Source: a virus (taxonomy: Duplodnaviria; Caudoviricetes). From it: 53,641 nucleotides of DNA. Below are positions 5,896 to 13,899 of this stretch, one piece after another. The first letter of the stretch is position 1, and the number at the start of each line of letters is the position of its first letter. A program made the position numbers and the translations under genes. The notes below the pieces were generated by a model that worked only from the letters and a program-made list of their open reading frames with translations, searched no databases and had not been told where the DNA came from. The stretch lies in the IMG/VR virus record IMGVR_UViG_3300025103_000001, positions 1-53,641 of that record. The stretch is one strand, 5' to 3'.

Positions 5896-6174
5896 TTAAG
5901 AATCAGAATCGTTTTGATCTGATTCCTCCGCGACTTCTATATTACTATCCACAGTATCGTTTGTTGTTGTACTTTCGTAATCAGCAATCAATAGATTTTC
6001 AAAGTGTAAAATAGAACCAATGATTTCTTCTATGTCTGCAACTGCTGTTGCTTTCTTAGAATTTAATCGTTGTAGCCGAGCTAATAGAACTTTTCCTGTA
6101 GGGGAAAGATCCTCTGCATAAACCTGTATGCCATCAATAGTGACAAAAGGTTTCTCTGTATTAGAATTTTCCAT
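5896..6174 (-). CDS. Hypothetical protein with acidic tail
   Basis: 92-aa ORF coupled to ssb. Confidence 0.7.
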   Translation of the reverse strand: MENSNTEKPFVTIDGIQVYAEDLSPTGKVLLARLQRLNSKKATAVADIEEIIGSILHFENLLIADYESTTTNDTVDSNIEVAEESDQNDSDS

Positions 6175-6587
6175 TAGAACTCTTCTCCGTCTAAAAGTTC
6201 AGCACCATCTTCTGATCTATACTCGACAAGATCAAGAACCTGCACAGCTTGTAAGTCCAAGCCTGTGTAAGGTCCAAATTTATTCTCGCCTTCGTATTCA
6301 GAATACTGTACTTTAATTTTAGAACCATTACCAACCGCATAGTTTACTTCTTGTTTGTTAGCATCTAACAGACGAGGTGCAGGTCTAACCATTCCATTAG
6401 GACCATTAACTTTACGCTTGATTATTATTGATGGACCTTCTTCCATCTGTTTAAGCCTGTGTCCACGACTTGCAAATTCATTTGCAGTCTCATCATCAAC
6501 AACTAAGTTGACTGAGTAAACAGGTTCAAACCTTGTGTTAGGCTGTTTTATGCTTGCCCAATAAGCAGTTCCTTCGACAATTGCCAT
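6174..6587 (-). CDS. Single-stranded DNA-binding protein, T7 gp2.5-like
   Basis: VGNGSKIKV and LQAVQVLDLVEY motifs; acidic C-terminus ending in F (DGEEF). Start moved to MAIVEG after GGAGG. Confidence 0.85.
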   Translation of the reverse strand: MAIVEGTAYWASIKQPNTRFEPVYSVNLVVDDETANEFASRGHRLKQMEEGPSIIIKRKVNGPNGMVRPAPRLLDANKQEVNYAVGNGSKIKVQYSEYEGENKFGPYTGLDLQAVQVLDLVEYRSEDGAELLDGEEF

Positions 6588-6768
6588 AGTAATATACCTC
6601 CATAGCATTATTATTATAATTCACTACCACGCAGAACAAAGCGGAGGAAGTGAGCCAATGAACCCCATCATCTTGATATGACACCAAGTTAGGTACATAC
6701 TGAATGATGGAGAGTGAGGGCATCATACATACCTAATGGCTCTTTTACTTTGCTTTCGCAATAGAACA
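6588..6768 (-). promoter_or_regulatory. Structured 5' leader of ssb
   Basis: Several complementary pairs, a 9-bp pseudoknot and an anti-SD CCUCC (see findings). Confidence 0.6.
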
Positions 6769-8781: not shown

Positions 8782-8963
8782 TTATAATCTCCCATTAAAT
8801 GATCTACTCGTTGCTGTATATAATACATACGAGCATCTGTTTGTGTTAAATTTTTATCATCAGCTTCTTTACTAGCTTGAGATACAGCTTTACTGTACCT
8901 CTCACTTTGTGTAGTAATGAAATTAATAATGTTATCTGTGTAGTTAGTTTCAATACTCATCAT
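8778..8963 (-). CDS. Hypothetical protein
   Basis: 61-aa ORF with ATGA-type overlaps. Confidence 0.6.
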   Translation of the reverse strand: MMSIETNYTDNIINFITTQSERYSKAVSQASKEADDKNLTQTDARMYYIQQRVDHLMGDYK

Positions 8964-9922
8964 GCCACCAACCTTAATGCAGGAAGCATCTTATCATTCA
9001 AAGTCTTTCTAACTCTGTCGAGTCTATCCATCTTAACAGATGCAATATTCTTTTGTGATAATCTTCTTGAAGGAATAGAATGTGTTGCCCACTCAGTCAT
9101 AGAATTATATAAAGACCACGCTGTACTTCCTAGTTCTCCACGATTACAGTTCCAGTAGTACCATAGATCACCAAGCGTTTTGTTTCTCTTAACATCAGGT
9201 TTATTCAATATAATTTCATGGTCAAATCCACTTGCTATATGACTGTCAACTGTTTTAGCTTGAGCCAAATGAGCCATAATAGACATAGCATCAGTATTAT
9301 CTATGCTAGTATCAACCATCTCTTGCCATAAATCTGTTTCATCATTATAGAATCTAACAGACTCCGATAACTTATCAGCAATTTGATTTAAGTTTAGACC
9401 TTTAGTGTGTTTAGATTTGTGGATTCCAAAGTTATTAGCAAACACCTGCATATTTAAACAGATGAATCTTTTACCACCAACCTCAACTACAAACGACCAT
9501 GAACCATCAAAACTATTTCGTGCTGATATAGTTAATGCTACTTGATCTCCAGTACCTTCACCGATACTAACTGTATGAGCAGGTAAAGTATAGATACTGT
9601 ATGCTCTAGCACCATCATGTGAACAGGCTGTTTCTCTTTCAATACCTGTGACATCTAAATCTGATAGCTTAATAACATTCTCTGCTGTTTTAAATGCGTC
9701 AACATGATTGACAGGTTTATAGCCTTTACCAACCACACTCAATACTTTATTAGTATCTTCACGCACCAATGCAACATGAGAATTTATATCAGTAAAGTCT
9801 GTATAAGCACCATCAATTGGACTTATCCCATGTCTCAGACTAAGTAATGGTTCTCTGCGTACTGAAAAATCAGCACTACCATAATCGCCTAGATTTGCTA
9901 GGACTTCTGCTCTATTATTCAT
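8960..9922 (-). CDS. DUF932-family phage/plasmid protein
   Basis: ALVREDT..VL..VG..Y, NSFDGS, RFICLN and STAWSLYNSMTEW motifs. Confidence 0.8.
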   Translation of the reverse strand: MNNRAEVLANLGDYGSADFSVRREPLLSLRHGISPIDGAYTDFTDINSHVALVREDTNKVLSVVGKGYKPVNHVDAFKTAENVIKLSDLDVTGIERETACSHDGARAYSIYTLPAHTVSIGEGTGDQVALTISARNSFDGSWSFVVEVGGKRFICLNMQVFANNFGIHKSKHTKGLNLNQIADKLSESVRFYNDETDLWQEMVDTSIDNTDAMSIMAHLAQAKTVDSHIASGFDHEIILNKPDVKRNKTLGDLWYYWNCNRGELGSTAWSLYNSMTEWATHSIPSRRLSQKNIASVKMDRLDRVRKTLNDKMLPALRLVA

Positions 9923-10110
9923 AGATCCCCCTTGTTAATTAATTTAAAATTGTCCTTGTCTTTTATAAAACAAGCAACAGTTAAGTCCGTTCCGTTTTCT
10001 TTTCTAAAAACAAACTTCTTAACTGCGGTTGGTTTGGAACTATCTTCATATAGATCCCTTGTGTCAGAAGTAATAACTTCTTTGACATAGAATAGACTTA
10101 ATCCGTCCAT
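9919..10110 (-). CDS. Hypothetical early protein
   Basis: 63-aa ORF with GAGGG Shine-Dalgarno, preceded by pseudoknot copy 1. Confidence 0.65.
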   Translation of the reverse strand: MDGLSLFYVKEVITSDTRDLYEDSSKPTAVKKFVFRKENGTDLTVACFIKDKDNFKLINKGDL

Positions 10111-10131
10111 AATTATACCCTCTCTAATGGT

Positions 10132-10165
10132 AGCAATATTATAAAGGCAATCGCTGTGAGCCTAT
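10132..10165 (-). promoter_or_regulatory. H-type pseudoknot, copy 1
   Basis: S1 AUAGGC/GCCUUU; S2 AGCGAU/AUUGCU. Confidence 0.6.
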
Positions 10166-10174
10166 AGAAACTGT

Positions 10175-10600
10175 AGTAGTTAGTGGGCAGTTGGATTAAC
10201 ATTTAAGGATAGTTCATTAACTGCTAATTTCCCTATCAATCCTCGCACTAGCTACTGGTAGTTTTGTAGTTCCGAAGATAACTACCAACTCCTCCAACAG
10301 CAACATAACCATCGGTCTTTACCCTGTCTGTCTACAGCAGTATGTGCGCTTTTATAGTCATCTAACAACCCATACATCTCATTGTTAGGAAGACTTAAGG
10401 CTTTGATTGCTACGCCATCAATGATGGTAAATACTTCTACAATCACCTTATACTAGTTTGATTTGTTTACCCACAGCTTAAATTACTAGCAAAGTCTGTG
10501 CGCTTGTAAGGAACTGTTTATAACTCGTTTAGCACCTCATGGGTAGAGTGGCAGGAATGAATTTATGTTGGCTTCCTTTTCTTACCAAACCCTTACTATT
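10175..10600 (-). ncRNA. Candidate large structured non-coding RNA
   Basis: A gap of about 490 bp in an otherwise packed region, filled with consecutive long imperfect hairpins and loop-loop complementarity. Confidence 0.55.
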
Positions 10601-10605
10601 ATTGT

Positions 10606-11058
10606 TTAGCTGTTTTCTAAATATTCAGAAGCTATATCTGTTTTGATTTGTTCAAGATTCTCTGTAGCATCTTTAGGTAGTAAAGCAAAAGCTACTTTAC
10701 TAAAGACATCTTCATAGGCTGAGTGATAACCATTAAGATTAAGCTTAATAAGAGGCATAGTTGTTCGACTATTTCTATAGCTATAAGAATTATATTGCTC
10801 TAATTGAAAAGCCTTACTGCATATTTCTCTATTAAAAGAATCTATACTATGAGAAATCTCTTTAGTAAGATCATCTAAAAGATTTTGCGCTTCATCAACT
10901 TTATCTTTCAAGATTATAGCTCGTTGAACATTAGAATCAATACTTTTATATTCTATTGTTTCATATAGAATAGCTTTCGTATCTTCTGAACCACTAATTA
11001 TTTTAGTACAAATAGCGTCAACGATTGAATCTATTTCAAATTTTCTAAGCTGTGGCAT
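10606..11058 (-). CDS. Hypothetical early protein
   Basis: 150-aa ORF with a central helical or coiled segment. Confidence 0.7.
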   Translation of the reverse strand: MPQLRKFEIDSIVDAICTKIISGSEDTKAILYETIEYKSIDSNVQRAIILKDKVDEAQNLLDDLTKEISHSIDSFNREICSKAFQLEQYNSYSYRNSRTTMPLIKLNLNGYHSAYEDVFSKVAFALLPKDATENLEQIKTDIASEYLENS

Positions 11059-11410: not shown

Positions 11411-11433
11411 AGTTTTTCTCTCTCTTTAATTTT

Positions 11434-11469
11434 GAACAGTATATTAAAGGCAACTGTTCTTAAGCCTAT
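11434..11469 (-). promoter_or_regulatory. H-type pseudoknot, copy 2
   Basis: S1 AUAGGC/GCCUUU; S2 GAACAGU/ACUGUUC. Confidence 0.65.
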
Positions 11470-11673
11470 CGAAATTTTAACTAGGTGCAGTACCTTTAAC
11501 TCCGCTGTATCTGCCTTGTCTGTTATAGTATTTCAACTGAAGTACCTAGTTATTTTTTGCCCACCACCAACCCGATATAAAAAAGATACATCTTAGTTTT
11601 ATATCTCTACATATTCTTTAACTTAACATTAAAGGAAAATTTAAAATAATCATGTTTTCTTTGCCGTCCCGTA

Positions 11674-11702
11674 AGTATAGCAAATCCACCGAAAAAAGTC
11701 AA
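11674..11702 (-). promoter_or_regulatory. sigma70 early promoter
   Basis: TTGACT-17 bp-TATACT with TGn. Confidence 0.85.
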
Positions 11703-11789
11703 TGGGTTTAAAACTCTATACGAACAATATATAGTAATAAACCCAACATAACTTAAATAGTATTATTAATACTTTTTGCGCAGGTCTAC

Positions 11790-12426: not shown

Positions 12427-12481
12427 AATATTTCCTCGTTTGTTAAGTTTTTATGGTTCGGTTTGTTGCCGAAGCCTCACA

Positions 12482-12510
12482 AGTCTAACCGCTCGGTCAA
12501 AAAAAGTCAA
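12482..12510 (-). promoter_or_regulatory. sigma70 early promoter
   Basis: TTGACT-17 bp-TAGACT. Confidence 0.8.
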
Positions 12511-12662
12511 GGGGTTTAAAACTTAGTAAGAACAATATATACAAAAAAGATCAGTCCAACTCTAATAGATGTATATATACATTTTGCGCAACCTCTTAAA
12601 AGATTATTTAACTATGTAGGTTTGTATCTATACTTTTTACATATTCTTTTTGGTTATATACC

Positions 12663-12714
12663 TGTGGATAAACTGTTTATAAGTCTGTATAAGCTGTGAA
12701 TATACTGTGAATAT
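12663..12714. repeat. Array of five DnaA-box-like 9-mers
   Basis: TGTGGATAA (perfect), TGTTTATAA, TCTGTATAA, TGTGAATAT and TGTGAATAT, starting at 12663, 12674, 12684, 12695 and 12706. Confidence 0.65.
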
Positions 12715-12928
12715 AACTTATAGTTATATAGAGATGCCCTCAATAATACGCGCCATCTTTTGAAAATTTGAGATTCTAAATTGACAGCTCAAGTTCGAGT
12801 CTTCGAGTTTTAAATAGTCTATCAATTTCGAATCTAAATTTTTGGGGGGTTTTCAAAGCCTGCTAAATAAAATTGAAGCGCTTCTTAGCGCATAATTTGA
12901 GGGTGGTTGACGAAGAGATCTGTAGCAT

Positions 12929-12963
12929 AAGAGAAGGGGAGAATCTCAATGTCATCCCCCCTA
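12929..12963 (-). terminator. Putative intrinsic terminator
   Basis: GGGGGGAT...ATTCTCCCC followed by TTCTCTT, just after the stop at 12979. Confidence 0.5.
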
Positions 12964-12978
12964 ACTCGGTGATCCTAT

Positions 12979-13257
12979 CTAGTTCTGGTCTTGTTGAGCC
13001 ACATAGTCTTGGATCGAATTGCGATACTTAGCCGGTAAAGTCTTCTTAGAGAATAGCGTATGAGCTTGGCTGTAAGTTAGTCTGCCTTCTTTTTTCTCAT
13101 TATAGAGACAGCCTTGTATCTGTTTAGCTTCTCGGTAGTTAGTGTTGCCGTTTGTCTTGCTTGCAAATTTGAAACTCAATCCTCTGATTTGATTCCAAGT
13201 TGCCGGACCTTTACGGGTTGCTTCGGGTACTTTTTTGATGTCGAATGTTGTAGCCAT
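12979..13257 (-). CDS. Isolated basic early protein, 92 aa
   Basis: Start moved to MATTFDIKK; the upstream extension in the ORF track looks non-coding. Confidence 0.65.
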   Translation of the reverse strand: MATTFDIKKVPEATRKGPATWNQIRGLSFKFASKTNGNTNYREAKQIQGCLYNEKKEGRLTYSQAHTLFSKKTLPAKYRNSIQDYVAQQDQN

Positions 13258-13899
13258 GTGTTTTCTGCCTTTATTTGTTAAGTTTATGAGTTTGGAAGAT
13301 TTTTCCGCTCTCACCCTAAGGGGAGTGGGAAAATCTTTGGCTTTCTTCTCATAAACCTGAATAAAGGAACACATGTATAGCGACACCATATCGACATAAG
13401 TAGCCGAAGTGAGCTGTAAAGGTCCTTCTTGGCAACTTAGGAGTCTAAGCAGATTGGTTGAGTTTATATAAATTTGCAGGCAAAGCAAACGGTGAGACTA
13501 AATGCCGTTAGAAGATGCAATAGATACAAGGCTACCTAGTATATGAGGAAATAAGATGTAGACTAACGAACCTTTACAAGCTTATGCGCTATTCTCTTAG
13601 AAGTACTAAGCGGTTAAGTGTTGTGATTCGATCTGTAGTCTATTGAGCTTGACAAGTCTCGACTAGAATAGGGCATTGTGGGAGGGGGGTTATATTTATA
13701 GAGATTCTCCACTTGTCAGACGCGGAAGATCTTGTAGTCAACCACCCCATGCAGGATGCCATACCCCCCACCTACCGTATATATGTAGTGCTTGAATGTA
13801 ATTATGAAAATAAGGTGTAAACCAGTTTCCCCGAACTTAATAGACTAATAGACCACCATGACTGGTAGGCACTATCAACCTTGGGGGGGGACAAGGTTC

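Follow-up and report, generated by a model that had tools for sequence, protein, structure and literature searches.

We examined a long intergenic gap in the window, the stretch of 53,641 bp that makes up IMG/VR record IMGVR_UViG_3300025103_000001. This record is a complete viral genome with direct terminal repeats, and its source is well supported as a marine podovirus of the HMO-2011/pelagiphage kind (53.6 kb). The gap (10111-10605, 495 nt, minus strand) lies between a gene for 150 amino acids (aa; 10606-11058) and a gene for 63 aa (9919-10110) whose other end overlaps the DUF932 gene (8960-9922). Comparison with related phages gives good support to the view that the gap belongs to the leftward early polycistronic transcript as an untranslated segment, and that it is composed of about seven independent folded RNA modules: D1, H2, D2, H3 with a GACAG-loop hairpin, the pseudoknot PKv, an 80-nt pseudoknotted core, and a leader hairpin. 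It is equally well supported that each module belongs to a family whose number, order and intergenic location differ among the related marine phages that carry it. Selection acts on the modules as RNA folds of the sense strand, and phages exchange them. As for their function, we give even odds to the reading that they serve the early transcript in cis, as leader or intercistronic RNA cassettes that are portable and spread by recombination. An earlier note, written from the letters of this DNA, had proposed a single structured RNA at this place.

Exchange of modules among relatives

Relatives were anchored on the flanking proteins, which provided 10 viral loci and 79 metagenome loci. A blastn comparison of the gap with these loci returned separate, sharp-ended blocks with 92-100% identity, with lower values in L143 and L162 (Table 1). 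The DUF932 genes beside the blocks were 72-77% identical to that of the window over aligned nucleotides and 59-67% identical in protein. Exchange by recombination is why the modules resemble one another across phages far more closely than the neighbouring genes do.

Table 1. Modules of the gap and blocks shared with relatives (q, position along the minus strand counted from 10615)
Feature	Position	Strand	Composition, or relatives carrying the block	Identity
D1	10506..10596	-	closing GUAAGG/CCUUAC; H-type pseudoknot; variable hairpin; then conserved UAUAAACAG	
H2	10453..10505	-	linker AAGCGCACAGACU (10505-10493) and hairpin CUAGU...ACUAG (10489-10453), GUGGGUA in loop	
D2	10396..10450	-	UAAGG-UGAUUG...CAAUCA-CCUUA, cap CCAUC/GAUGG	
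H3	10356..10395	-	hairpin AGUC-CUAACAA/UUGUUAG-GACU	
Second linker, small hairpin and G/U run	10289..10354	-	linker (10351-10339); YWGACAGR-loop hairpin (10340-10324); AUGUUGCUGUUGGAGGAGUUGG run	
PKv	10256..10292	-	S1 GGAG/CUUC, S2 UGGUAGU/ACUACCA; variant of a widespread pseudoknot cassette	
Core	10176..10255	-	P1 GUAGCUAGUG/CACUAACUAC (one C.A mismatch), P2 GGAUU/AAUCC, P3 GAUAG/CUAUC, pseudoknot	
Leader cassette	10108..10175	-	ACAGUUUCUAUAGG box (within 10175-10161), hairpin AGGC(N11)GCCU (10165-10141), AU-rich spacer	
Shared block	q1-163		L049	100%
Shared block	q75-163		L058	100%
Shared block	q17-114		L056, L091, L135	about 92%
Shared block	q113-163		L055, L148	98-100%
Shared block	q157-359		L160	96%
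Shared block	q216-360		L086, L132, L148	98-99%
Shared block	q221-360		L143	89%
Shared block	q249-360		L162	81%
Shared block	q350-443		L153	95%
Shared block	q368-433		L005, L010, L061	92-94%
Shared block	q438-515		L004, L051	96-99%

Whole modules are gained, lost and rearranged. In L004, 54 nt replace 372 nt of the gap while both flanks are 93-96% identical, and D1, read by eye, runs straight into the leader cassette. Among relatives the gap is as short as about 70 nt (L054) and as long as about 1 kb (L011), with about 175 nt in L004, L008 and L056. In a contig from one DNA run, 188 other letters take the place of the sequence between 10178 and 10616; in the same run the contigs add up to a depth of 44-71 over 10176-10343 versus about 5.6 on either side, which is what sharing of those modules by many genomes of the sample would produce. 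Modules also occur singly, in other orders and at other intergenic sites. Three pseudoknot cassettes separate non-coding cargo in L091. In L178, L182 and L184 (about 575-735), the core and a small hairpin separate the Shine-Dalgarno sequence of a 52-aa gene from its ATG; a 21-nt duplication of the gene junction flanks this insertion, and both neighbouring genes keep their signals.

These results bear on the structure that the earlier note had proposed, a multi-domain non-coding RNA of about 430 nt and of the GOLLD/ROOL kind, with tertiary contacts between its domains. Many helices are indeed packed into 430 nt, and the window copy does have a 7-nt complementarity between two loops, UACCCAU and GUGGGUA, from which a 7-bp kissing contact had been suggested. 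However, the domains are independent and occur in other orders, L004 does without 372 nt, no Rfam family matched, and the region as a whole folded with a z-score of -0.08. The kissing partners are uncoupled as well: L056 has the UACCCAU hairpin but not the GUGGGUA hairpin, L055 has only the latter, and the two lie in different units in L091. The loops show no covariation because both are invariant. We regard one large RNA as very improbable, and the proposal as largely refuted.

Portable modules are not confined to the gap under study, because a hairpin module CUAGGUAC...GCACCUAG at about 11478-11545 on the minus strand of the window, directly before a second copy of the leader cassette, recurs nearly unchanged in a different gap of L088 (few single-base differences by eye). 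A search of IMG/VR for the exact 16-mer ATAGATCTTATAAACA returned 34 stretches, of which 30 were chance matches and four were true relatives, all already known. The 14-mer ACAGTTTYWAWAGG, allowing two mismatches, had 10 matches in the window versus 5.7 expected, which is no enrichment.

Base pairing and coding potential

The comparison of relatives, rather than folding energy, is what supports structure in the gap. In the core, GCAGUU of the P3 loop pairs with AACUGC right after P2 to form the pseudoknot. Across eight distinct sequences, 94.2% of the cells for its 26 pairs were paired, versus 25-41% when the partners were slid. Nine pairs changed on both sides (seven of the ten in P1 and two of the six in the pseudoknot), and none of 500 shuffles reached the covariation score. 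P1 exists in five unrelated sequence versions around a 66-nt interior that is almost invariant: P2 has A-U or G.U at one pair, P3 does not vary, and the pseudoknot reads GUGGUG/AACCAC in L160, with two double changes, and has GUAGUU, with a U.G pair, in L005. Read on the opposite strand, the G.U pairs of the sense strand would become C.A. A first pattern for the core recovered just three contigs, all of them known, and a looser one recovered 10 stretches. In L185 (about 560-600), a cassette of the GGCAG/CUGCC type, as in L096, abuts the core in a different gap, between homologs of the 116-aa and 150-aa genes.

The cassette to which PKv belongs has the common form AGCAG-U(U)-GGUAGU-CUGCU-(7-9 nt, A-rich)-ACUACCA in relatives. 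Its S1 is most often GCAG/CUGC, with ACAG/CUGU in L147, GCAG/CUGU in L150 and L160, and CUGA with an upstream UCAG in L136; its S2 is GGUAG/CUACC, or GGCAG/CUGCC in L096. An alternative proximal hairpin, GUAGUU/AACUAC, was rejected as it is not kept in relatives (AACCAC, AAUCAC, AACUAA, AACUAG). A pattern for the cassette matched 37 stretches in IMG/VR versus four dissimilar ones in 596 Gb of prokaryote genomes. We then utilized a covariance model (CM), R1, built from 40 of the 42 distinct cassette copies, with two L151/L157 variants left out. It scored PKv at 40.1 bits (E 2.9e-8) as the sole copy in the window, and five other viral records had one or two copies each. Over 372 kb of loci there were 46 matches at E<=0.01, of 56 listed, and no further divergent S2 variants; all 46 had the same orientation as the next gene downstream, wherever there was one. 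No cassette was detected by CM R1 in HTVC115P, HTVC103P or HMO-2011 (best E 0.16).

For D1, the two helices of the H-type pseudoknot are S1, UUGG (10588-10585) with CCAA (10571-10568), and S2, AGGAA (10577-10573) with UUCCU (10557-10553). The closing stem GUAAGG/CCUUAC is shared by the window, L004, L008, L056 and L091, and the homologous stem is GAUAAAG/CUUUAUC in L055, L084, L086, L094 and L096. S1 varies as UUGA/UCAA (L004), AUGC/GCAU (L055, L005), AUGU/GCAU (L088), GUGC/GCAC (L011) and GUGC/GCAU (L065), and S2 as AGGAU/AUCCU and AGGAAA/UUUCCU. The variable hairpin after S2 is absent from the 64-66-nt minimal form (L084), and UAUAAACAG or AUGAACAAC comes next. These pairings were read directly off the printed sequences, without a formal pair count, because MAFFT lost the helix register; three regular expressions for D1 were too strict and gave few matches.

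H3 has two compensatory pairs in L162 (CCAACAG/CUGUUGG), and L143 keeps the helix with a changed loop. In an alignment of nine sequences, the stem of the GACAG-loop hairpin reads UAGUG/CACUA in L143 and L089 and AGUG/CACU in L162 and L139, while the AUGUUGCUGUUGGAGGAGUUGG run is identical in eight of the nine (L160 has one G-to-A change), the sequence elsewhere being 81-99% alike. Compensatory changes thus support the predicted folds of the core, of D1 with its H-type pseudoknot and of the pseudoknot cassette, and they also favour the predicted pairing of H3 and of the cassette's S1 and S2.

H2 behaves as one unit, with 98-100% identity in L049, L055, L058, L091 and L148, and in L055 it stands directly before the DUF932 start region. 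Its predicted pairing is invariant in these five other contexts. D2 has a homolog only in L160/L183, as part of a 95.6% match over 203 nt; two differences from L160 were seen by eye, one of them in a stretch that the minimum free energy (MFE) fold leaves unpaired, and its predicted structure is plausible.

The helices that the earlier note had listed for D1 (GUAAGG/CCUUAC with UUGG/CCAA inside), H2 (CUAGU/ACUAG), D2 (UAAGG...CCUUA capped by CCAUC/GAUGG) and H3 were recovered in place, as were the G/U-rich stretch (10313-10289) and the 13-nt linker that it had seen twice, the two copies of which are 88% alike. Its helix UGGUAGUU/AACUACCA, within 10292-10256, proved to be S2 of PKv, and GUAGCUAGUG/CACUAACUAC does close the core. 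It had missed three pseudoknots: in D1, at 10256-10292 and in the core. Shine-Dalgarno-like purine runs lie inside D1 and the G/U-rich stretch, such as GGAGGAG in the AUGUUGCUGUUGGAGGAGUUGG run. The idea of a CsrA sponge based on GGA motifs, and promoter readings of TTGCCTTTA and of TTGACAG, were considered by eye only and were no better than chance.

The open reading frames (ORFs) in the gap are a 54-aa ORF with a GTG start (10282-10446) and a 31-aa ORF (10217-10312). If either encoded a small protein, the recurrence of the C-terminal 37 residues of the 54-aa ORF in L086 and L134 would fit, and the part that is shared coincides with an RNA module. However, the start of the 54-aa ORF lies in D2, which is absent from L086 and L134, and the N-terminus is replaced there. 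In L143 the nine-sequence alignment shows three synonymous versus eight non-synonymous changes, including a premature stop, L162 has a frameshifting 1-nt deletion, and the 54-aa ORF has no protein-family match. The earlier note had named conservation of this ORF as what would count against an RNA; what relatives conserve instead is the AGUC...GACU hairpin, through compensatory changes. The broken or replaced ORF together with the compensatory changes bears out that the gap is non-coding and carries selected RNA structure on its minus (gene-sense) strand. We give a small protein almost no credence.

The thermodynamic test that the earlier note had suggested came out flat. The whole gap folded at -116.7 kcal/mol versus -116.2 +/- 6.0 for shuffles (z -0.08), and 49 of 100 shuffles folded as well; the plus strand gave z +0.42. 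Among the modules, D2 (z -2.22, 5 of 200 shuffles) and the core (z -1.97, 6 of 200 shuffles) alone stand out mildly, with D1 at -0.26, H2 at +0.51, H3 at -1.26, 10256-10354 at -0.89 and the leader hairpin at -0.28. MFE folding is blind to pseudoknots. The suggested check against known families was negative too: Rfam 15 gave no match anywhere in the window at the gathering threshold (GOLLD, ROOL, ribozymes and riboswitches included), and none at E<=0.1 in the loci of seven relatives (31,016 nt). Over 10050-10700 at E<=10 it listed just MIR2629 (18.1 bits versus 60, plus strand) and ceN70 (15.1 versus 65), both irrelevant. ARAGORN detected no tRNA or tmRNA gene in the window, and blastn in distant mode matched 10050-10700 to none of 50,697 phage records.

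Transcription, placement and possible roles

The genes at 1-13.5 kb run leftward and include DNA polymerase, primase-helicase, a gp2.5-like single-stranded DNA-binding protein (SSB), exonuclease, GP88 and DUF932, while the structural genes run rightward. A scan for promoters and terminators detected no such site on the minus strand of 10111-10605. The nearest upstream promoter-like site on this strand with a near-consensus TTGAC first hexamer is TTGACT-17-TATACT (11702-11674), a second sigma-70-like promoter is TTGACT-17-TAGACT (12510-12482), and weaker-looking consensus matches lie inside the 150-aa gene (10940-10913 and 10911-10882). Because the gap has neither promoter nor terminator on the minus strand and sigma-70-like promoters lie upstream on the same strand, it is most simply part of the early polycistronic transcript. 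The RNA evidence for the gap is one 270-nt contig from metatranscriptome X23, which covers 10291-10576 at depth 2 and <90% identity; in metatranscriptomes X22 and X24, two contigs lie over part of the DUF932 gene. The RNA runs were contigs only, which give no strand, ends or level, and the parts that they leave uncovered carry no meaning.

The terminal modules keep fixed relations to the genes. D1 starts 9 nt past the stop codon of the 150-aa gene, and in the loci read it lies about 0-20 nt after the upstream stop codon, whichever gene that is. At the other end, a start codon lies 20-36 nt past the pseudoknot cassette in 22 of 35 downstream-ORF groups, often with a U run after the cassette, although the genes that follow are unrelated (DUF932, 69-aa, 43-50-aa and 75-aa ORFs, primase-helicase). 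Since such a distance leaves no room for a promoter, read-through of the cassette is required. The leader cassette of the window likewise ends in the Shine-Dalgarno sequence and ATG of the 63-aa gene (10125-10108), after its AU-rich spacer. Its second copy precedes a 116-aa gene (about 11440-11478), and homologs precede genes in L004/L051 (96-99%), L054/L060 (80%), L096, L098, L005 and L011, where the hairpin is AAGGU/GCCUU with a G.U pair. L011 has, at 135-1145, about 1 kb without a credible ORF before DUF932; it contains three long GUGUG.../...CACAC hairpins, each followed by GACA(G/A)UUUUAA, and a fourth ACAGUUUC box opens the leader cassette there.

We infer from this placement that the modules would act in cis on the mRNA. 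D1 opens right after an upstream stop codon and the last module, cassette or leader hairpin, stands 20-36 nt before the downstream start. Pseudoknots and hairpins at these cistron borders might block exonucleases and define the products of RNase E-type processing. They might also set the translation initiation of the next cistron, or allow its repression, by analogy with the leader of T4 gene 32. The middle modules could be extra insulators or stabilisers, or passengers on the same recombination.

Several points weigh against a cis-acting role. Close relatives live without most of the modules, so any such role is dispensable. Entire modules are nearly identical down to their loops, which fits recent transfer and thus says little about function. 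The thermodynamic z-scores are mostly unremarkable, and D2 and H2 are without comparative support. The lone 270-nt RNA contig could be DNA carry-over, and it shows neither ends nor strand. With one or two copies per genome, the cassette is unlike a general regulatory signal, and PKv is 147 nt from the next ATG, with the core between, so that a reading modelled on the gene 32 leader applies to the relatives more than to the window copy.

Dispensability, the single locus per genome and the near-identity keep two other explanations alive. One is that the modules are cut from the early transcript and become stable trans-acting small RNAs, which would be decoys or sponges for an RNA-binding protein or nuclease of host or phage, or an RNA anti-defence, with the pseudoknot cassette and the AU-rich boxes as processing punctuation. 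An accessory, patchy and fast-exchanged distribution is typical of conflict genes, and an almost invariant core interior within a free closing stem is what aptamer-like or protein-binding RNAs have. The non-coding cargo between the cassettes of L091, the Shine-Dalgarno-like runs in D1 and the G/U-rich stretch, and, weakly, a metatranscriptome contig wholly inside the gap point the same way. Yet the gap scan found no promoter or terminator that such RNAs could call their own, discrete ends are unsupported, the fixed 20-36 nt between the terminal modules and start codons points to cis action, and no protein family is common to all cassette neighbourhoods, which leaves no partner protein common to all contexts. 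We consider trans action, which takes in the sRNA precursor and the protein sponge that the earlier note had named, unlikely, although it deserves to be kept in mind.

The other explanation takes the modules as selfish or neutral passengers, or as DNA-level features such as recombination hot spots, single-stranded DNA hairpins or an origin, that persist by recombining well. It would account for indels with sharp module borders, for relatives that do without modules, for the core placed between Shine-Dalgarno sequence and ATG with its 21-nt duplication, and for one locus per genome in the replication-gene region. However, selection keeps the pairing, pseudoknots included, as seen in the compensatory changes and in G.U pairs on the sense strand only, and an origin would not be dispensable. 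Elements of the miniature inverted-repeat transposable (MITE) or transposon kind have conserved terminal inverted repeats. The varying closing stems and fixed interiors of the modules, seen in the five unrelated stems of the core, are the reverse of this and of integron attC sites, and we judge the passenger explanation quite unlikely.

A more speculative extension, which we rate as rather unlikely, is that the modules, above all the core, are a new class of portable functional RNAs (aptamers, decoys or ribozymes) traded for conflict with hosts or rival phages, or that their spread depends on the RNA or single-strand fold.

Relation to known phage elements

The DNA polymerase and primase-helicase of this phage are T7-like and its SSB gp2.5-like; its capsid protein is nearest to those of Pelagibacter phages HTVC115P (57%), HTVC103P and HTVC104P, and 43% identical to that of phage HMO-2011. 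As an alternative to one large RNA, the earlier note had offered a T7-like series of sites for RNase III processing among the early cistrons. Each such site in the T7 early transcript is a single intercistronic hairpin with an irregular duplex of about two turns. The position holds up: hairpins stand in a row between cistrons of an early operon that host RNA polymerase reads, and the podovirus has T7-like replication genes. The anatomy does not. Among the supported helices, P1 of the core is the longest with 10 bp and the others have 4-8 bp, all short, interrupted and pseudoknotted, whereas RNase III requires a duplex of some two helical turns; the modules are dispensable and mobile; and their interiors are conserved in sequence, which is not required of RNase III sites. 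An RNase III array is therefore improbable. The antitoxin RNAs of type III systems like ToxI, for their part, are head-to-tail tandem repeats of about 34-45 nt beside an endoribonuclease toxin gene. TRF detected no tandem repeat in 9900-10800, the cassettes of relatives lie 100-250 nt apart, and family searches showed no nuclease among the neighbours.

The T4 gene 32 leader has a 5' pseudoknot for translational autoregulation and an RNase E cut at -71, according to the accessible part of one report (PMC3014915). To the extent of that account, the cassette, chiefly in relatives, appears to resemble the T4/T2 leader in having a compact H-type pseudoknot at the 5' edge of the translation initiation region, an AU-rich unstructured spacer next to it, and a processed polycistronic phage mRNA. 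By contrast, the cassette precedes many unrelated genes (DUF932, small ORFs, primase-helicase), none shown to encode an SSB that binds its own leader, and the two have no similarity in sequence. Before the SSB gene of the window (6174-6608), CM R1 detected no cassette. Relatives have the cassette 20-36 nt ahead of the ATG; in the window the leader hairpin takes that place. Rfam holds no model of the gene 32 pseudoknot, as far as the available text of PMC10690425 goes.

That text describes the screen of the whole of IMG/VR by Fremin, Bhatt and Kyrpides in 2023, in which seven candidate structured RNAs (csRNAs) have DUF932 within 25 bp downstream. Three of the seven are all-marine: DNAVirus_1886 (52 nt), DNAVirus_3712 (68 nt) and DNAVirus_8685 (83 nt) (PMC10690425). 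Some of the DNAVirus csRNAs may be the present cassettes, the comparison being one of the listing and not of sequence. In the portion available, the screen treats candidates singly, with no account of modular stacking, pseudoknots or exchange (PMC10690425). Among the papers searched on intergenic or non-coding RNA of pelagiphages and HMO-2011, and on structured phage or metagenome RNA with covariation, none described the modules or their stacking.

PeSL (promoter-early stem-loop) cassettes, mobile regulatory elements of T4-type phages, consist of a strong sigma-70 promoter and a terminator stem-loop in many copies per genome, as the accessible parts of two reports present them (PMC2839356, PMC4122927). 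Within these accounts, they resemble the gap modules in being small structured non-coding cassettes of plastic early regions that mark the borders of indels and replacements and are thought to spread by recombination between copies (PMC2839356, PMC4122927). The gap modules differ in that they have no promoter, consist of pseudoknotted domains with conserved interiors, and include one or two copies per genome of the commonest cassette instead of many dispersed ones.

The early arm has two further long gaps (11411-11789 and 12427-12978), both with sigma-70-like promoters. The earlier note had called such a long stretch anomalous: the 495 nt indeed lack a credible ORF, but in view of these two gaps the stretch is not unique. 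A 110-nt direct repeat, 71% alike (11673-11782 and 12481-12590), carries a near-consensus sigma-70 promoter in each copy on the minus strand (TTGACT-17-TATACT and TTGACT-17-TAGACT), and these promoter repeats come closer in appearance to PeSL cassettes than the gap does. At 12665-12711 on the minus strand, upstream of the 12510 promoter, five ACAG motifs (TTCACAG, TTCACAG, ATACAG, AAACAG, CCACAG) are spaced by 11, 9, 12 and 11 nt; the array is iteron-like and contains a 15-nt match to UUAUAAACAGUU of D1.

Where the leftward and rightward gene arms meet, nested imperfect inverted repeats (I1-I5, 12901-13747) form a giant palindrome centred near 13315, with five arms of 28-57 nt that span about 330 nt per side and are 71-82% complementary. 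A 169-aa ORF inside it (12979-13488) has no family match. A 186-aa ORF between the DNA polymerase and exonuclease genes (1878-2438) has HNH and endonuclease VII-like matches.

Phage genomes are usually read gene by gene. Among these abundant uncultured ocean phages, the unit of exchange is a folded RNA piece of 40-100 nt whose base pairing selection maintains. The core, D1 and the pseudoknot cassette represent at least three RNA families that Rfam lacks, and compensatory changes support their pseudoknots. Long phage gaps that appear structured should be checked for modularity before they are named as one large RNA. Should the modules prove to control the survival or translation of mRNA, streamlined marine phage-host systems would have in them a compact regulatory toolkit that can be transplanted; action in trans would make them a novel type of accessory "gene" made of RNA.

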